Shown: piece after piece, positions 10,225 through 36,581 of the stretch
Numbering within the stretch: the first letter of the stretch is position 1
Layout: the number at the start of each line of letters is the position of its first letter
Source: Vulcanimicrobiaceae bacterium
Lineage (GTDB): Bacteria > Vulcanimicrobiota > Vulcanimicrobiia > Vulcanimicrobiales > Vulcanimicrobiaceae
Direction: 5' to 3'
Length of the DNA: 36,605 bases
Assembly (NCBI GenBank): GCA_046262595.1
Contig: JBHEMM010000027.1
Span: 1 to 36,605, forward strand
Position numbers and translations under genes: made by a program
The notes under the pieces: model-generated
What the model saw: only the letters and a program-made list of their open reading frames with translations
What the model was told of the DNA's origin: nothing
Databases searched by the model: none

Positions 10225-12813
10225 CTAGCCGGCCAACAACTCAGCAAGACGTGCGGAAGGCGCGGCCCGGAGCTCCTCCTGCAGAACGCGCCGGTACCCC
10301 GCAAATGTGCGCCGTGCGGCGTCGGTATTTCCCTCGCTCATGTTCAAGCGGATAAGCAACTCCCATGCCGTCTCATCGCACGTGTCGAATTCGAGCATCA
10401 TTTGCGTCAAGGCGCGGCCCGCTTGGAAGTCCGCCCTGCGAATAATGTCGCGCGCCAAAGCGCTCGACAATTCGACTTGCAAATTCTGCAGCATCGCAGC
10501 GGTCGGGATGAACCATTCGTACTCGTTGAGGTGCGCCGGAGCACCTTTTGCGAGACGGCCGTACATCTGCACAAGCGCCTCCCGTTGTTCTTCAAGCACT
10601 GCCGGTTCCTTCAGCGCGAGTTCGCAGGCGCTTCGAATGTTTTGAAGCTCGCTTCCAACGTCGGCGCCCAGAACGTACGCGTTGTTTACAAAGCAGACCA
10701 CTCGTGCGTCCCCGCACTGGAGCCGTGCACGCCGCACAGTCATTTTAAGAGCGTTCACCGCCTGACCCGGCTCTTCGTCAGGCCACAGCATTTCGCAAAG
10801 TTCATCGCGTTCGACGGATCGGCTGCGTACCGAGAGCGCCGTCAGCAAATCGAGCACTTTGCGTGAGACGTTTACCGGACGACCGCCTCGTTCCACGGTT
10901 CCGCCCAGCACGTTAACCACGACGTCGCTTTCTTCGGGCGCTTGCTCATGCAGCGCGCGCATGTGCCGCACCAGCGCGCGGAACGGCTGGTTGCGCGCCG
11001 GCAGCTCTCCGGCGCGCATCTGAGAAATCGCGCCGCATACCGGCAGAAGCTCGGTGATTTGCGCCAGCGCCGAAGCCTCGTCCAGCAGCTCGGCCTGGCG
11101 TTGCGGAACCAGCGGCGCAAGCGCAATGCGCATTCCGATGCGCAAAGTCAGAGCACCCGAAACATCTGCTGCCTCGATGCCTGCCAAGAGGCGGACCCGC
11201 GCCTCAGCGGCGGAGCCGGCATAATACGCTTCAACAAGCAATTGCCGCGCACGCAGGTATGGCTGGCCGAAACCTGCGCATGCGGCAGGAGGGCAGCCGG
11301 CGATCGCTCCGTATTGAGCGAAGGGACCGACATCGTGATCGCGCGCCAAATCGCGAAGCATGCTGCGGGCGCGATCCGCGTTTGCCGAGTCGCAAGCGAA
11401 GACCGCTCCCCCGATAAACTCCGCCAGTGCCGCCGCCTGGGCCCAAACATCGCCGCTTTGGCCGGCAATCTCTATGGCGTGCGCGTGCAAAACGAGCTCG
11501 GTCTGCCAATTGCCGTTCCCGCGCGCCCTAGAGATGCCGATCATGTTGAAGACGGTCTGGAGAACGTAGGAATTATGAAGCCGGTCCGAAACTGGCCGCA
11601 ACGCAATTGCCGCCTCGATTAAGCGCCCTTGCAGCGCATATCCCGTCGCGCGGTAACCGCAGATCGCAACATCGGCGACATCCATCGTCGAGGGAGCGGG
11701 AAGCTCTCCGCCGGGATAGATCTGCTCCAAGAGTGCGTCGGAGCGCACGAAATCGCCCGCTTCGATGTAGAGAAACATCAGCAGGCCGCGCAGCGACTTT
11801 ATTACGACGGGTTCTTCGCTATCTTCCACCATGTCCAGGAGCGCCTCGGCTTCGGCAATCAGAACGTGGATATCGATGCGAAACCGGCGCACACGCCAAG
11901 AGCATATCCAGACGCGCGCGTTCGTTGCGATTAAGGATTCCGGGATCGTCTTAAGGACGGCATCGAGCTCGACGGAGGGCCGTAGAATGTGCTCAGCGGG
12001 CGCTCGCAGCAGGTGTTCGAACGCCGATTGGGCGTTTCCGATATTGCTCGCGACGAGCGCCGCGGAGATAAAGGCGCCGCCGCGATTAAGGCCGTCAATG
12101 GTCCCGAGCGCCACGTTCGAGAGGCTTGGGGAGCAATGTTCCCGCCCCGCTGCTGCGACGAGCGGCGTGGCTGAGAGCCGCCCGCCGGCGTACGCGAGCA
12201 AACCGCGTTTGGTCAGATTCCGAAGAGCAGCTTCAATGTCGCACCCAGGTAGCGCTAAGTGCAAGATGTCTCTTCGCGAGTCGCCGATGGAAATGATCGT
12301 GACGAGCACCGCGCGATCGTCGGGAGACAGCACGGAGATGATGCGCTCGTACACGTGCCGTTTGAGCGGAAGGTACGGGGGCGCTTCCAGGTTGCGCGCT
12401 ACCGATTCGCCTTCGTTGCGCAGCAAGCGCCGCGCCAGCGAGACTCCTGCCGCGAAGCCGCCGGATATTCGCTGCACCTCTGGCAGAAAGTCCGACGAGA
12501 ACGCTAAGCCGTCGAAAAATCGCGCGATCTCTTCGTGGTCGAATGCGAGGTCCATGTCATCGAGTTCACACACGTGCACCGGTGCGCTGCTGCCGAACGG
12601 CGTCGGCATGCGCGGGTCGGACGCGGTCGCGATAACGAGGCGGCCTTTGGGCGGCATTGAAAGCTGCGCGATAAATTCGCGGGCCTCTGCGCTCGATATC
12701 TCGTCGATTAGGGGCATGACGCTCGCGCTTGCGGGACTACGCAAGGCGCCGAGCTGCTGAAGAAAGCGGGAGCGTCCTGAACCGGGCTGCCCAACGACAT
12801 AAAGAAAGCGCAC
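10225..12813 (-). CDS. Large MalT/STAND-like transcriptional regulator with C-terminal wHTH plus BTAD (SARP-type) domain
   Basis: Degenerate Walker A GQPGSGRS, MalT-like DLAFDHEEI…SGGFAAG, helical repeats, VERDELCEMLWPD…LKMTVRRAR, DTCDETAWELLIR…LQEELRAAPS. Confidence 0.8.
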   Translation of the reverse strand: MRFLYVVGQPGSGRSRFLQQLGALRSPASASVMPLIDEISSAEAREFIAQLSMPPKGRLVIATASDPRMPTPFGSSAPVHVCELDDMDLAFDHEEIARFFDGLAFSSDFLPEVQRISGGFAAGVSLARRLLRNEGESVARNLEAPPYLPLKRHVYERIISVLSPDDRAVLVTIISIGDSRRDILHLALPGCDIEAALRNLTKRGLLAYAGGRLSATPLVAAAGREHCSPSLSNVALGTIDGLNRGGAFISAALVASNIGNAQSAFEHLLRAPAEHILRPSVELDAVLKTIPESLIATNARVWICSWRVRRFRIDIHVLIAEAEALLDMVEDSEEPVVIKSLRGLLMFLYIEAGDFVRSDALLEQIYPGGELPAPSTMDVADVAICGYRATGYALQGRLIEAAIALRPVSDRLHNSYVLQTVFNMIGISRARGNGNWQTELVLHAHAIEIAGQSGDVWAQAAALAEFIGGAVFACDSANADRARSMLRDLARDHDVGPFAQYGAIAGCPPAACAGFGQPYLRARQLLVEAYYAGSAAEARVRLLAGIEAADVSGALTLRIGMRIALAPLVPQRQAELLDEASALAQITELLPVCGAISQMRAGELPARNQPFRALVRHMRALHEQAPEESDVVVNVLGGTVERGGRPVNVSRKVLDLLTALSVRSRSVERDELCEMLWPDEEPGQAVNALKMTVRRARLQCGDARVVCFVNNAYVLGADVGSELQNIRSACELALKEPAVLEEQREALVQMYGRLAKGAPAHLNEYEWFIPTAAMLQNLQVELSSALARDIIRRADFQAGRALTQMMLEFDTCDETAWELLIRLNMSEGNTDAARRTFAGYRRVLQEELRAAPSARLAELLAG

Positions 12814-25314: not shown

Positions 25315-27273
25315 TCAGTTGCATCCGTTCGAGGTCATGAGCACGTAGCCGTCGTTCGAGCCGATCGTCAGCGGGTTGCTTACTGCCCGGCCGAACAAGT
25401 CCGTGTAGACGTGTCCCGTTGGAAGGTGCGCGACCTCGCTGTTCGATCCCGATCCGCCGTTCACGACAACGAGCGCATTTGCGAAGCGCCGGTAGTAGAT
25501 GCTGGGGTTGCTCGAATCGCGCGCGCTGTAATACTCGCCGCACGGTGCGCCGGTATTCGCCGTATATTGGCTGTGCCAATTCTCCACGCCGTACCCTTTC
25601 GAGTTCGCAGCAAAGAGTGACTCGGCTTGCTCGTTGCCCATCAGATACGTGGCGACCGACCATTCGATCTGCGGCGTGCCCACGTTCAGGCTTCCCCAAT
25701 TGTCGTTGGTGAGTACGGCGACGCCGTGCTGCTGCGCATACGTCGCCCAATTCACGGCGCGGGTGAAGTACGATGCCGACCCCTTGATGTAGTTGCCGTA
25801 GAAGCTGAAGCCGTCTTCGTTTAAAACCGCATCGACGTTCGAGAGAAAGGCCTGTTCTTGCGTCGTCAGCGTCGTCGCCGGATGGTTGACGATCAGCTTC
25901 AGGCGGTAAGGCGCAAGCACCGGATCGGTGGTCAGCAGCGCATGCGCCTGTTTTACCCAGGCGACGACATCCGCAGCCCAATTGGCATCCATCACGCCGG
26001 TGTAGCGGCGCACGAACGATCCGTTTTGATGGATGCCGCAGCCGTATGAGCCCGAACCGGCGCCCGCATCGGATTGCCAGAACGTCGCTTCGTCGATTGC
26101 GAGCGCATGATACCCTAACTGATGCGCGTAGTTCGCCATTAAACGCACTTGGTAATCCACGACCGCTGGGTTGTGAACGTCGAGCGGGACGTTGTTCAAA
26201 CCCGGAACCCACGCGGGATTTGCCGACACCGAGCCGCTCGCCGTGCATGCGTACAACACCCAGTCCGGATGAACGCTTTGCCACCACGTCAGTGTGTGTC
26301 CGATCGCGCCCCAGCCGGTGGGGCTTTCATCGGTTTCGAGGGCGTTATAGTACGCTGTTTGCAGCCCGGGATTGCTCGTAAGCCATGCCGTGCCGATGTT
26401 GTTGCGCGCTCCCCAGACCGCCGAGTAGCGATTGCCGTTCGCCGCGGCAGCAGCTTGGGTGATATAGCCGTCTGCCGTGTCGTCGAACACCTGCATCGCG
26501 CTGATCTTGCCCCAGCTGCTGGGCATGAACGCGCTCTGAACGGGCTGCGTCAACCCCGTTTGCGAAACTATCGCAGGCGTAGCCGTAGGCGTAGGCCTCG
26601 GCGCGGGACTGGGCGCCGTAGTCGACACCGGCTTCGCCGTAGCGCTTGCAGCGGGCGCCGGCGATCCGGACGGCAACCCCGACGGCGATGCGGACGGACT
26701 CGCGGTGCTGCCGCCGGATTGCGCCACCGTGAGCGCGGTCAGCGACGTGCTGTAAGAGCCCGTGCCTGCAACGGTGACGGTTTCGCCCACGAACGGCTGC
26801 GGCCCGGTCACGCGCGTGCCCGCATTCGTCCAAACGTTTAAGTAGCCGACTCCGGGCGGCCCGTGCACTTCAAACCCGCCGCTGATCAGCGCAACGATGG
26901 GGGCGGTAAAGCCGAGCACCGCTCCCTGCGCAACTTGCGTAGCGGTCATCGAGGTGGTGACGCTGCCGGTTCCCGTTGCGGCAATCTGTTCGCCCAGGAA
27001 CGGCTTTGCGCCGATGAAGACGGTCGATGAAGTCGTATAAACATTAAAATAGCCGAATCCGCTGCCGCCTTGCATTTCAAAGCCGCCGGACATAAAGCCG
27101 ACAACCTTACCCGTGACCGTTAGGGCGGTCCCTGAGGACGAGTATAGTCCCTCGCCGGTGGTGGGTTTGGAGGTCTGCGGCAACGCGGCTTGTCCGCCGC
27201 CGCCGGAGCACGCGGCAGAACCGGCGATGAACGCAAAAAGCAGTGCGAGTCGTAACGCATGAACGGTCTTCAT
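25315..27273 (-). CDS. Secreted lipoprotein with two OB-like (DUF5666-like) repeats, a Ser/Pro/Thr linker and a putative glycoside hydrolase domain (GHL15-like)
   Basis: Lipobox SAAC; two about 65-aa repeats; SPSASPSGLPSGSP…PTPTATP linker; HPDWVLY, LDVHNPAV, LAIDE, VLNEDGF, YYRRFANALVVVN. Confidence 0.7.
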   Translation of the reverse strand: MKTVHALRLALLFAFIAGSAACSGGGGQAALPQTSKPTTGEGLYSSSGTALTVTGKVVGFMSGGFEMQGGSGFGYFNVYTTSSTVFIGAKPFLGEQIAATGTGSVTTSMTATQVAQGAVLGFTAPIVALISGGFEVHGPPGVGYLNVWTNAGTRVTGPQPFVGETVTVAGTGSYSTSLTALTVAQSGGSTASPSASPSGLPSGSPAPAASATAKPVSTTAPSPAPRPTPTATPAIVSQTGLTQPVQSAFMPSSWGKISAMQVFDDTADGYITQAAAAANGNRYSAVWGARNNIGTAWLTSNPGLQTAYYNALETDESPTGWGAIGHTLTWWQSVHPDWVLYACTASGSVSANPAWVPGLNNVPLDVHNPAVVDYQVRLMANYAHQLGYHALAIDEATFWQSDAGAGSGSYGCGIHQNGSFVRRYTGVMDANWAADVVAWVKQAHALLTTDPVLAPYRLKLIVNHPATTLTTQEQAFLSNVDAVLNEDGFSFYGNYIKGSASYFTRAVNWATYAQQHGVAVLTNDNWGSLNVGTPQIEWSVATYLMGNEQAESLFAANSKGYGVENWHSQYTANTGAPCGEYYSARDSSNPSIYYRRFANALVVVNGGSGSNSEVAHLPTGHVYTDLFGRAVSNPLTIGSNDGYVLMTSNGCN

Positions 27274-33215: not shown

Positions 33216-33251
33216 TTGCATTCTGAGATAACTTTGTGGTACAAAGTTATC
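33216..33251 (+). promoter_or_regulatory. Putative promoter overlapped by a perfect 11-3-11 palindromic operator
   Basis: GATAACTTTGT-GGT-ACAAAGTTATC (33227-33251). TTGCAT at 33216 and TGn-TACAAA at 33237-33245; ATG follows immediately at 33252. Confidence 0.65.
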
Positions 33252-33815
33252 ATGCGTTGGAAACCTTTAACGGCGATCGCCGGCGCCGCATGCGCTCTTT
33301 ACGCGCTCTTTGTGGTGCTGGTGGTCTTCCTCGCGTTTTGGCGTCCGCCGCAACCGCTGCCGCTGGGCACCGTTCAGTGGGTTCAAGAGGCCGGCGCGAC
33401 CGTGGATTCCGTCGAGCGCGTGGCGCGCATCACCGACGGCAAACGAATTGCTGTCGCGCGCGGCCAATTTTACATCGTGCATGCGCGTGTGCTGGCGCCG
33501 CTCGGCCTTCGCCCGCATTGGAGTGACGACGACGTGGAAGTGCGCACGTTCTCCGGCTCGGGAGGCAGCATGCGCGGTCTGCGGTTCGGCGTTGACGAAG
33601 CGGCGCAGCGGATTCTGGATCGAAGGACCGGGCGACCGGGGCCGCATCACGTCATCATCGGCGCCTCGCAGCACGAAGACCTGGTATTCGATCTGCCGCG
33701 CAATGTGGAGCAGCCCGGGATTCTTTTCCTTGCCGCAAACGATCCGGCGCAACTGCTCGAGCTCATCTTCGGCCGGGTTTGGCAGCCGCACCGCTTTAAT
33801 CTGCGCTATGACTGA
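33252..33815 (+). CDS. Hypothetical membrane-anchored protein (DUF4352-like beta-sandwich)
   Basis: N-terminal TM; GQFYIVHARV…EDLVFDLP motif. Confidence 0.7.
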   Translation: MRWKPLTAIAGAACALYALFVVLVVFLAFWRPPQPLPLGTVQWVQEAGATVDSVERVARITDGKRIAVARGQFYIVHARVLAPLGLRPHWSDDDVEVRTFSGSGGSMRGLRFGVDEAAQRILDRRTGRPGPHHVIIGASQHEDLVFDLPRNVEQPGILFLAANDPAQLLELIFGRVWQPHRFNLRYD

Positions 33816-34441
33816 GTATGCGCCACCGCCACGCATTCCAAAAGGTTGAACCCGCGGGCGAAGGATCGATGCCCGTAATTCCGCGGCGATACGCGTTCGG
33901 CATGCGCACTTGCCAAAGCGTGAGTTCGGGAAGATCGCGCACCAGTTCACGCTGCACCAGCGCGTAGTCGGCTTTGCGCCGGGCGCGATCGAACGTGAGC
34001 AGCGCATCGTGCATTGCGGCATCGGCCTTGCGGTTACACCAAAAATAGTAATTTTGACCAGCCGGCGGTCGTTGATCGCAAGCGAAGTTCCACGTGTCGT
34101 CAGGGTCCGGGCCGAGCGTCCACCAGGCGTCGTATGCGAGCTGGTATCTTCCGTTTGCAAGGATGCCGCCGGCCGATTTCGGCCCCCAAAGCAGCGTCAG
34201 CGGATACGTTTTAATACTTACCGCGATGCCGGCGTCGGCAAGATAACGCTGGATCATCGCCGCCACCAGCGCCGAGCCGTTAATGCCCTGCGGCGAGATC
34301 GCGAACGTCAGCTCGAGCGGATGCCCGTTCTTCGCCCGCATCCCGCGCGGCGTCATCCGCCATCCGGCCGCGTCGAGCAAGCGGCGCGCCGCAGCCGGAT
34401 CGTACCGAATGCGCGCGACGGTGCCGTCGTGCGCCCAACTC
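33796..34441 (-). pseudogene. C-terminal fragment of a family-5 (peptide/nickel) ABC solute-binding protein
   Basis: SWAHDG…YDPAAARRLLDAAGW…KNGHPLEL…IQRYLADAGI…GPDPDD…NYYFWCN…QRELVRDLP…FWNAWRW. No genuine N-terminus in place. Confidence 0.9.
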
Positions 34442-34950
34442 GCGATCGTCGCAACGTTCTTTGGACCGCAGGGCGTGCCCGCGCTCATGCCCGCGCATCT
34501 GCTGCAACGCTATCCCGATCTGAATCGCATTGCGTATAACCAGCGCCCCGTCGGCGCCGGACCGTACCGTGTCGTGCAATGGAAACACGGCGATTCCATT
34601 ACGCTCGAGGCCAATCCGCTGTATTGGCGCGGCAAGCCGCAGATTGCGCACCTGGTGTTCCGCATCATTCCCGATGCGAATACGCGAAAGCAGCAGCTGC
34701 AAACGGGCGAGACGGATGCCTATTTCGACGTGGATCCGCAGTTGCTGCCGCAAGTGCGCTCCGTAAGCGGGGCAAACGTGCTGCTCACGCCGGTGAACGA
34801 CATGCACATCGTTCGCTTCAATTTGACCGATCCGGTTCTGGCCGACGTGCGCGTGCGTCGGGGCATTGCGCTGGCGCTCGATCGGCGCAAGATCGCGCTT
34901 GCGGCCACGCACGGCGCGAGTGTCTTGTTGGAAGGCGATCAGCCGCAAAC
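34442..34950 (+). pseudogene. Middle fragment of the same solute-binding protein, inverted
   Basis: AIVATFF…MPAHLL…PVGAGPYRVVQWKHGDSITLEANPLYWRGKP…LQTGETD…FNLTDPVLADVRVRRGIALALDR…GDQPQ. Confidence 0.9.
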
Positions 34951-35200
34951 GATGGCGCTCGATATGTTTTACGCGAACGCTATCGCTGCGTGGGAACGTC
35001 TTGTCCCAGTAAATGTGGCGCTTCGGCGTGACGGAGGCAATAGCGTGTGGGAAAACTTCGAATACTTTGTGGTGCTTTCGCAAGCGTGGTACGCAGCGCA
35101 TCCCGACGGCACGTATCCCTCGGGCGTAAGGCGCATCGATCTCAAAGATGATCTGCTTGAAGCGGATAACCAATACGTCGCCGTCCGTCAAGCCACGTAA
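34950..35200 (+). pseudogene. C-terminal fragment of the membrane-anchored protein that starts at 36033, inverted
   Basis: MALDMFYANAIAAWERLVPV..LRR….VWENFEYFVVLSQAWYAAHPDGTYP… is unrelated to solute-binding proteins and continues …KRRIIDR naturally. Confidence 0.8.
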
Positions 35201-35207
35201 TACGCCG

Positions 35208-35687
35208 GTGCGTTTGGACGTTTGTAAGACACTCTTGTTGCTCACGCTTGCGCTGAGCGCATGTTCCGGCGGCAGCACAGCCGGCGGTCAAACATTGGTC
35301 TTTACCGGGCTCGCCGGCGAGCCGGACTCGTTGAACCCGCTCGTTTCCACGTCCACCGATCTCTACAACCTCAGCCACTTATACATGTCGCTGCTTGTCG
35401 AAAGCGACGCGCGCGGCCGGCTCGTTCCTGAAATCGCAAGCGCCGTTCCGACGATGCAGAACGGCGGCATCTCGCCCGACGGCCGGACGATCGTCTATCA
35501 TTTGCGCCGCAACGTGCGCTGGCAGGACGGCGTAGCGCTCACGGCGCGCGATGTGCTGTTCAGCTACCGGGCGGCCATCGATCCGCGCAACAACGTCCCG
35601 ACGCGCGTCGGCTACACCGATGTGTTCTCGGTTTCTGCGCCGGATGCGTATACCGTTGTGGTGCGCATGCGACGCCCGTTTTCGCCG
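35208..35687 (+). pseudogene. N-terminal fragment of the same solute-binding lipoprotein, inverted
   Basis: Lipobox LSAC, EPDSLNP, LVPEIA..VPT.QNGGISPDGRTIVYHLRRNVRWQDG..LTARDVLFS, APDAYTVVV…PFSP, then an abrupt stop. Confidence 0.9.
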
Positions 35688-36033
35688 AGCGATCGATGAT
35701 ACGCCGCTTCGCAAATACGCCCAGGTTCTCGAATCTGTTACCCACAAGCATGATCTTCGTGACGAGACCTTGGCTTTCAGGCGTGCGCGCATGCCGGTGA
35801 GCAACTTGATAACGGAATTCGGGGCCTTGCCAGTTCTTTAGCAGTTCTGTGAGAACGAAATTCTGAGCATCGGCGAAAACCGGCGTATTAAAGGCGCGCT
35901 GAACCTCGCTGAGGCCCTCGATAAGATTTGCGCTGCGAGCGTGCCGAAGTTGAAAGAGAGCCGCCATTGCGGTCGCCGCGATAACGAGAAACGTGCCGAA
36001 GGTCGCTAGGGAATTAAAAAGTTCCAAAGACAT
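35688..36033 (-). pseudogene. N-terminal fragment of a membrane-anchored hypothetical protein (DUF4760-like)
   Basis: ATG 36033 after GAGAGG; MSLELFNSLATFGTFLVIAATAMAALFQLRH…GNRFENLGVFAKRRIIDR, after which the frame reads antisense into the inverted segment. Confidence 0.78.
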
Positions 36034-36107
36034 AACGCCTGCCTCTCTCAAAGTGTATTCGCAGCCCTGGAACCTTCGGCCGGCGCGTGGCACAAACTTC
36101 TCGGGTA

Positions 36108-36581
36108 TCACGCGTTTGGGCCGTTCCGGCACGACTTACAGCGCCAAGCCGGCATCTCCGGCCAGTTCACGCAACCTCCAAGTGCGATCTCTCCCCGGTC
36201 TGCCGCTTAACCCATCTCAATTCCAGGCAAAACGTACGCGATCGGCATAACGCTCGCAGTATGGCAATTGGGGCAACACGGCCGAACGCTGCTTGTCGGC
36301 GACTTGCGCTTCCTGCAGCTTGGCGACCAGAACGTGCGCAGAAAATCCTGACATCGCGCTTCGGTGCCGTCCCAGACGGAATAGAACCCGTTTGCTTCGA
36401 GATCTTATTCCGGAATGTCCGAGAGCGGGCGCCATATTAGCGTGATGCCCGCATCTCGTAGTGCCTTGCAGAGCGCGGCGTCAGGCTGCCATTTCGAGAA
36501 CAGTGTAATTGAATCCAAGCCGATGCCGTCGGCAAACAGTATCAGCGTCAAGAGTAGATCGCGTTGGAAGCGCTGGGACAA
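36108..36581 (-). pseudogene. Degraded gene with C-terminal zinc ribbon and two in-frame TAA stops
   Basis: One frame reads LSQRFQRDLLLTLILF…WRPLSDIPE*DLEANGFYSVWDG…CPNCHTASVMPIAYVLPGIEMG*AADRGEIALGGCVNWPEMPAWRCKSC. Stops at 36407-36405 and 36209-36207. Confidence 0.65.

Follow-up and report, generated by a model that had tools for sequence, protein, structure and literature searches.

Two adjacent genes cut at three points, with both middle pieces flipped in place, on a draft contig of a Vulcanimicrobiaceae bacterium

The rearranged locus

Contig C27 of the draft genome (2.42 Mb in 122 contigs, 89.7% complete) of an uncultured Vulcanimicrobiaceae bacterium from soil, which at its full 36,605 nt is the window analysed here, carries near its right end two adjacent genes in scrambled form: a DUF4760 gene, followed by the gene of a lipoprotein of the SBP_bac_5 family of solute-binding proteins (SBPs). 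The two genes have been cut at three points and both middle pieces are flipped in place, and in the record both genes are disabled by this intragenic rearrangement. Every base has been kept once, two joints make use of each breakpoint to within 0-2 nt, and compared with a conservative double flip the rearranged sequence has 2 nt in excess. The explanation favoured here, with about an even chance of being right, is a one-off event in the cell in which the DNA was cut at three points and rejoined, most likely by Ku and LigD.

Read on the minus strand, the locus has the order A, rc(B), rc(C), D (rc, reverse complement). Piece A (35688..36033, minus strand) is still in its original orientation and holds the N-terminal 115 codons of the DUF4760 gene from the ATG at 36033-36031 (DUF4760 profile positions 2-95). 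Between it and block B there is a single CG, joint J3 (35686..35687). Block B lies on the plus strand and consists of two parts, the first of which (34952..35200) holds the C-terminal 82 codons of the DUF4760 gene, beginning with MALDMF, and its stop codon (profile positions 99-138), and the second (35208..35685) the N-terminal third of the SBP gene. At joint J2 (34950..34951) a single CG belongs both to block C, as its end, and to block B, as its start. The interior of block C (34445..34949, plus strand) is the middle third of the SBP gene, from IVATFF to GDQPQ, inverted in place. Joint J1 (34441..34444) reads CGCG and has two CG dinucleotides where one is expected from a conservative flip, that is, 2 extra nt. 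Piece D, finally (33796..34440, minus strand), is the C-terminal third of the same gene and extends from the Ser of T-SWAHD to the stop codon at 33796-33798. The two genes must originally have been adjacent, as in block B the DUF4760 gene ends and, after 7 nt, the SBP gene starts. The 198-aa gene and the 7-nt spacer before the lipoprotein gene, both proposed in an earlier note on this DNA, are confirmed; the SBP gene has a GTG start 7 nt past the DUF4760 stop, and its translation has a lipoprotein signal with an LSAC lipobox.

The pieces, their strands and their order had been described in the earlier note, and are borne out by Pfam profiles, by tblastn alignments with relatives and by the relatives' own loci. 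The SBP_bac_5 profile (PF00496, cut-off 32.4 bits) matches the three SBP pieces in separate open reading frames (ORFs), with positions 3-85 on the plus-strand ORF 35148-35699 (68.3 bits), positions 76-245 on the plus-strand ORF 34283-35200 (122.3 bits), and positions 254-359 on the minus-strand ORF 33796-34488 (50.9 bits). NCBIfam models of peptide, nickel and dipeptide binding proteins match all three pieces as well, each below the equivalog cut-off and thus too weakly to assign a substrate, and in piece D it is the C-terminal region that the peptide/nickel models match. Intact relatives from a genome search were aligned to the window by tblastn. In case of the relative L009, an open frame of 604 aa, residues 81-226 align to 35259..35687 (plus strand), residues 227-395 to 34445..34951 (plus strand), and residues 397-603 to 34437..33817 (minus strand), and four more intact relatives show the same three-piece pattern. 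In six of six loci of relatives, the three pieces lie collinearly on the same strand, with a gap of 0 nt between the N-terminal and the middle piece, whereas in this record the frame is split in three pieces over two strands. Judged by these profile and homologue matches, the SBP gene here is a broken member of the SBP_bac_5 family. The genome holds at least 13 matches to the SBP middle block, and the paralogues within the genome are 70-80% identical. A comparison of synteny had been proposed: the closest relatives have no DUF4760 gene, no 199-aa ORF and no beta-lactamase-like gene beside their SBP, and their gene neighbourhood is therefore uninformative, but the link between the two genes is given by block B itself.

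The pieces of the DUF4760 gene score 16.3 and 17.5 bits with the DUF4760 profile (PF15956, cut-off 25), and the assignment of the split gene to this family is made via its intact relatives, which are 53-57% identical over piece A and reach 60.3 and 48.1 bits; on this basis the gene is probably a DUF4760 member. The relative L022 aligns to the window in the same split manner, with residues 11-129 at 36045..35689 (minus strand) and residues 131-207 at 34952..35182 (plus strand), and 10 of 10 homologues align across the rebuilt joint without a gap. Members of the family occur in 33 of 41 related genomes, this one included, and 0 of 5 genomes of the sister family f2 have a match; the NCBIfam models provide no name for the gene. 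DUF4760 genes (in relatives, loci L021-L031) are highly multicopy in the lineage, with five matches in this genome and up to 26 in the relative G038, and tandem arrays are frequent, with six matches on one contig of G038 (C66) and five on one of G004 (C269). Three of the loci used come from unpublished genomes: L011 (G036) is among the relatives used for the SBP mapping, join and locus comparisons, and the ten DUF4760 homologues include L027 (G023) and L028 (G022). All claims hold without these three.

All four pieces are still open, with 53-74% identity to homologues and no frameshifts, and the rearrangement is for this reason either recent or artefactual, in support of the earlier proposal of a recent or artefactual rearrangement that switches off both genes. 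As a result of the flips, the middle third of the SBP is joined in frame to the C-terminus of the DUF4760 protein within the plus-strand ORF 34283-35200. This fusion ORF is present in a public protein collection as the 241-aa protein P0121, which spans J2, and P0121 is thus probably a database entry for a protein that does not exist. With the 305-aa chimeric sequence as the query, one homologue, P0050 (527 aa), covers 76% at 54% identity, and all others cover about 55%.

Features of the joints

The precise position of one join had to be corrected. Of the in-frame rejoinings proposed earlier, the other joins are sensible in comparison with homologues, but PFSP-A-IVATFF contains an extra Ala that is absent from 13 of 13 aligned homologues. 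With the start of block C moved to 34445, the SBP is a protein of 543 aa rather than 544 aa, and in none of 121 homologues (those of at least 480 aa) is there an indel within 6 residues of either joint. Together with the ten gap-free DUF4760 alignments, the rebuilt proteins thus align to their homologues as had been predicted. In the inferred original there is one CG at each of the three breakpoints, and the present DNA equals this original with the interiors 34445-34949 and 34952-35685 flipped about the CGs; a script found the two identical after removal of 2 nt. The earlier calculation that the rearranged sequence is 1 nt short therefore does not hold: it came from the misplaced join, and in fact 2 nt have been gained. 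For a strictly conservative double flip that restores all frames there is no solution, and several assignments of which original CG was doubled give the identical sequence. The interiors between the CGs measure 505 and 734 nt, so that the three breaks lie inside 1.25 kb.

That a CG is found at every joint, as had been noticed from the sequence, is correct. CG makes up 13.9% of the dinucleotides in the window and 14.3% in the region, and the chance that all three breakpoints fall at CG is, in a post hoc estimate, about 0.003 to 0.05, depending on how strictly "at" is taken. The CGs can be understood from the geometry of the joints, as terminal base-pairing in an inverted join needs a self-complementary dinucleotide, of which CG is the commonest here. 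The heptamer GCGATCG is indeed present at 34442-34448 and 35689-35695, next to two of the joints. It has 39 matches, compared to 28.05 ± 5.72 expected, and 6 of 100 shuffles reach 39. As a recognition site it has been rejected, because the heptamer is frequent and its copy at J1 is created by the extra CG.

Inverted repeats were searched for at the block ends. The longest inverted exact run between junction neighbourhoods is only 5-7 nt, as compared to a mean of 5.7 and a 95th percentile of 8 in 1000 random window pairs, and none of the 25 longest inverted repeats of the region has both arms at block ends. Nor is there any 5-7-mer that is common to the three sites at equal offset within 40 nt, or any 6-mer common to them within 3 nt, in any orientation. 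A 17-nt inverted repeat does exist, with arms at 35672-35688 and 35870-35886 that are complementary at 16 of 17 positions, and its left arm ends at J3. It is the only pair of such quality within 33700-36200; 23 of 200 dinucleotide shuffles contained a pair of equal or better quality, and 2 contained one with an arm ending at a junction. In the inferred original this would be a direct repeat that spans the middle breakpoint.

The absence of a long inverted repeat and of a recombinase from the window, which the earlier note had reported, has been corroborated: a Pfam scan of the window, covering 30 of 72 ORFs (≥150 aa) and 3 short ORFs at its end, found no recombinase. In the genome as far as it is assembled, the Resolvase family of serine recombinases (PF00239) has 0 matches, and tyrosine recombinases (PF00589) are represented by one full gene on C13 and fragments on C65, with none on C27. 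An end-joining system is encoded in the genome. Ku is recognized with 179 bits, a 555-aa LigD ORF has the domains LigD_N (phosphoesterase), DNA_ligase_A_M and DNA_ligase_A_C, and an adjoining 321-aa ORF is the LigD_Prim-Pol. The genes of LigD, primase-polymerase and Ku lie in a row on the minus strand of contig C1 (G000:C1:108937-112167; L032, L170). Two more ATP-dependent ligase genes are found on C7 and C65.

Occurrence of similar cases and of other copies

A scan for further cases of this kind made use of the closed genome G009 (2,648,196 nt) of the same family, from which 2214 non-overlapping ORFs of at least 120 aa were compared by tblastn with the assembly, and the criterion was one protein that matches abutting pieces on opposite strands at most 1.5 kb apart. 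Hits were obtained with 1516 of the 2214 ORFs, covering 67.2% of the assembly; the scan is blind to genes that have no homologue in G009 and to pieces too short for E ≤ 1e-4. Each of the 18 candidate pairs falls within C27:33817-36036, and there is no second case among the testable genes. The idea that other inversions of the same type might be found in the genome has thus not been substantiated, and a single case in a genome-wide scan argues against a systematic assembly fault.

Other copies of the region have also been searched for. Protein searches for a second scrambled copy or an intact allele of the same species, over proteins of 92-2000 aa, found P0121 on a single contig only (C27), and the next best homologue of the SBP middle block has 78% identity. 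Metagenome contigs scanned for exact 25-mers yielded 0 matches, and within the genome itself there is no alternative contig for the region, only paralogues.

Origin of the rearrangement

In the original arrangement, a DUF4760 gene would have been followed, after 7 nt, by the SBP_bac_5 lipoprotein gene, both on the minus strand. The DNA would have been broken at three CG dinucleotides, and both internal fragments religated in their former places, each flipped. One joint would have gained a CG in the process (CGCG, 34441-34444), and this gain of 2 nt would fit a fill-in before ligation; small gains at a joint are usual in end joining. The probable agent is the non-homologous end joining (NHEJ) of the cell by Ku and LigD, acting after clustered double-strand breaks, and the fragments would stay together in the nucleoid. 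What is found at the locus fits such an origin: the complete set of Ku and LigD is encoded, a CG is shared at two joints and has been gained at the third, and there is no long homology. The reuse of the breakpoints is automatic when three breaks divide a duplex into four pieces that are then rejoined with the inner two flipped, and its exactness is thus easier to reconcile with such an event than with template switching. As neighbouring pieces share only CG, which leaves no k-mer or overlap path between them, molecules or reads that bear J1 to J3 must have existed. Simultaneous breakage, its occurrence in the cell and the joining by Ku and LigD are inferred from these properties, and nothing suggests that the event is regulated or reversible.

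Several observations weigh against an origin by breakage and end joining in the cell. The joints have no support from reads or from a second assembly, and the locus lies 572-2810 nt from the end of a draft contig, where assembly errors gather. Three breaks within at most 1.25 kb, with both fragments kept in order, would be a very rare event, and, as far as a single literature search goes, we know of no natural bacterial precedent for it. As the pieces show no decay, the event is neither datable nor demonstrably inherited. Random breakage, moreover, does not account for the GCGATCG next to two of the joints or for the 17-nt repeat that ends at J3.

A serious alternative, with a probability somewhat below one half, is an artefact that arose after DNA extraction, either by whole-genome amplification from few templates, by ligation during library preparation, or by an assembly or finishing error near the contig end, in which case both genes are intact in the population. 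The contig comes from a draft of 122 contigs and 89.7% completeness, the scramble begins 0.6 kb and reaches to 2.8 kb from the contig end, the joints are not seen in any independent assembly or read set, and perfectly intact pieces are just what is expected if no event took place in vivo. For an assembly error, a de Bruijn or overlap assembler would have no path by which to make joints that share only CG with their partners, and a second case was not found by the assembly scan. In-vitro ligation would produce random partners from the metagenome and not neighbours in their own places. Chimeras from multiple displacement amplification (MDA, with phi29 polymerase) resemble the locus in their inverted joins of segments less than 10 kb apart, often with at least 2 nt of complementarity: in the portions of the study that are drawn on here, 406 of 475 chimeras were inverted, the majority lay within 10 kb, and a complementarity of at least 2 bp was found in 76.8% (PMC1855051). 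Two of the three joints at the locus share a CG. According to the same portions, however, the form of such a chimera is a single, random inverted join with an intervening deletion (PMC1855051, Lasken and Stockwell 2007), whereas here three joints tile exactly, every base is kept, only 2 nt have been gained and three breakpoints are reused precisely. Such a tiling is not predicted by template switching, because the polymerase must leave and re-enter at the same three nucleotides. The earlier argument that a missing base favours template switching is not supported either, as the loss of a base resulted from the misplaced join and the breakpoints are reused.

Inversion as the elementary event is to be considered in two forms. 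Two successive inversions of neighbouring blocks at a common fragile or nuclease-prone site are quite improbable. A CGATCG palindrome encloses the middle breakpoint of the inferred original, a further CGATCG is found a few nt from another breakpoint, the 17-nt repeat spans the middle breakpoint, and every breakpoint is at CG, all of which would suit such a site; yet the same nucleotide position must break twice independently, the three sites have no 5-7-mer in common at equal offset within 40 nt, and the first inversion already kills the SBP gene, so that there is no selection for a second one. A programmed and reversible intragenic inversion of the inverton or shufflon type, toggling both genes, is less probable still, and the reversible switch considered in the earlier note is nearly excluded. 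It is true that joints on a palindromic dinucleotide are possible for the crossover of a serine recombinase, and that intragenic invertons exist in other bacteria; as far as the part of the preprint used here describes them, they are inversions inside coding sequences that give truncated or recoded ORFs, as at this locus (Chanin et al., bioRxiv 10.1101/2023.03.11.532203). In the same part of that source, invertons are defined by flanking inverted repeats and are flipped by invertases, whereas at this locus neither is found, the inverted repeats at the block ends being not beyond chance, and two adjacent blocks are flipped and two genes destroyed. The genome has 0 Resolvase-family genes at 89.7% completeness and its sole full tyrosine recombinase is on another contig, the six half-sites have no common motif, and the gain of 2 nt marks a non-conservative event. 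No alternative protein is made, both products being simply destroyed, and the relatives' genes are plain and collinear.

A variant of breakage with subsequent end joining, in which the breaks are not random, would account for the CGs in a different manner, and is rather unlikely. In this variant, a single activity in an Eremiobacterota cell, an undescribed nuclease or recombinase of low specificity, would cut with a 2-nt stagger at CG, and Ku and LigD would carry out the repair. In the inferred original, all three sites are T-CG on the plus strand and all six ends can carry CG. Two of the joints may then have re-annealed via self-complementary CG overhangs, and the third may have been filled in and joined bluntly, which would result in CGCG. 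Restriction-type cutting has been rejected, as the inferred sites differ at the base after CG and fit no single known palindromic recognition site. Topoisomerase VI makes 2-nt staggered breaks, and it has been rejected as a candidate with 0 matches of its A subunit (PF04406) in the assembly. If the staggered-cut variant is true, the locus is a natural bacterial case of local chromosome shattering.

Relation to known systems and significance

A close resemblance exists to bacterial rearrangements by Ku/LigD-dependent NHEJ and to chromothripsis or chromoanagenesis, the multi-break events of eukaryotes, with which the locus shares close breaks, rejoining in random orientation, microhomology of 0-2 nt, a small insertion, and no need for repeats or a recombinase. 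In comparison with these, the locus is tiny, with two fragments in 1.25 kb, and nothing has been lost. In shufflons, the Rci recombinase acts on repeated 19-bp sites and swaps alternative C-termini of one gene. Like in the case of the locus described here, adjacent segments of shufflons invert independently and breakpoints are common to them, but the locus has neither repeated sites nor alternative ends.

If real, the locus offers a clear natural instance of rearrangement by multiple breaks and end joining in a bacterium of a poorly known soil phylum with a full Ku/LigD set, and means that mis-repair of clustered breaks can leave fragments flipped in place, as a counterpart of chromothripsis on a small scale. 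If artefactual, it serves as a warning that draft contigs can hold a perfectly tiled double inversion that is called as four plausible ORFs. The biological consequence is small in any case, as the loss concerns a single SBP_bac_5 paralogue out of at least 13 and a single DUF4760 copy out of 5.

Genomic surroundings

The best homologues of the genes in the window are from metagenome bins of Eremiobacterota (Baltobacteraceae, Cybelea). Among the genes of C27 are those of cbb3 oxidase subunits, DnaB, a Lon-like protease, glutamine synthetase and pyruvate:ferredoxin oxidoreductase, and to judge from this gene content the contig is chromosomal. The scrambled locus is 572-2810 nt away from the right end of C27, and by chance about 15% of positions are expected to be equally near to a contig end. 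In the last 572 nt of the contig, no further scrambling is seen. A 58-aa ORF at the contig end (36405-36581, minus strand) is a partial and divergent copy of a protein family about 146 aa long, whose C-terminal half it matches with 44% identity; the family adjoins a response-regulator gene in two relatives and has a better copy (58% identical) on C17 of this genome. Directly upstream of this ORF there is an in-frame stop, at most about 24 nt from the contig end.

On the other side of the locus, a 199-aa ORF (33216-33815, plus strand) is convergent with the SBP gene and has a 20-nt overlap with its stop; it has no Pfam family or only a weak match. Farther away on the contig, a 652-aa ORF (25315-27273, minus strand) has no Pfam match, and an 862-aa ORF (10225-12813, minus strand) has only a sub-threshold Pfam match to Trans_reg_C.

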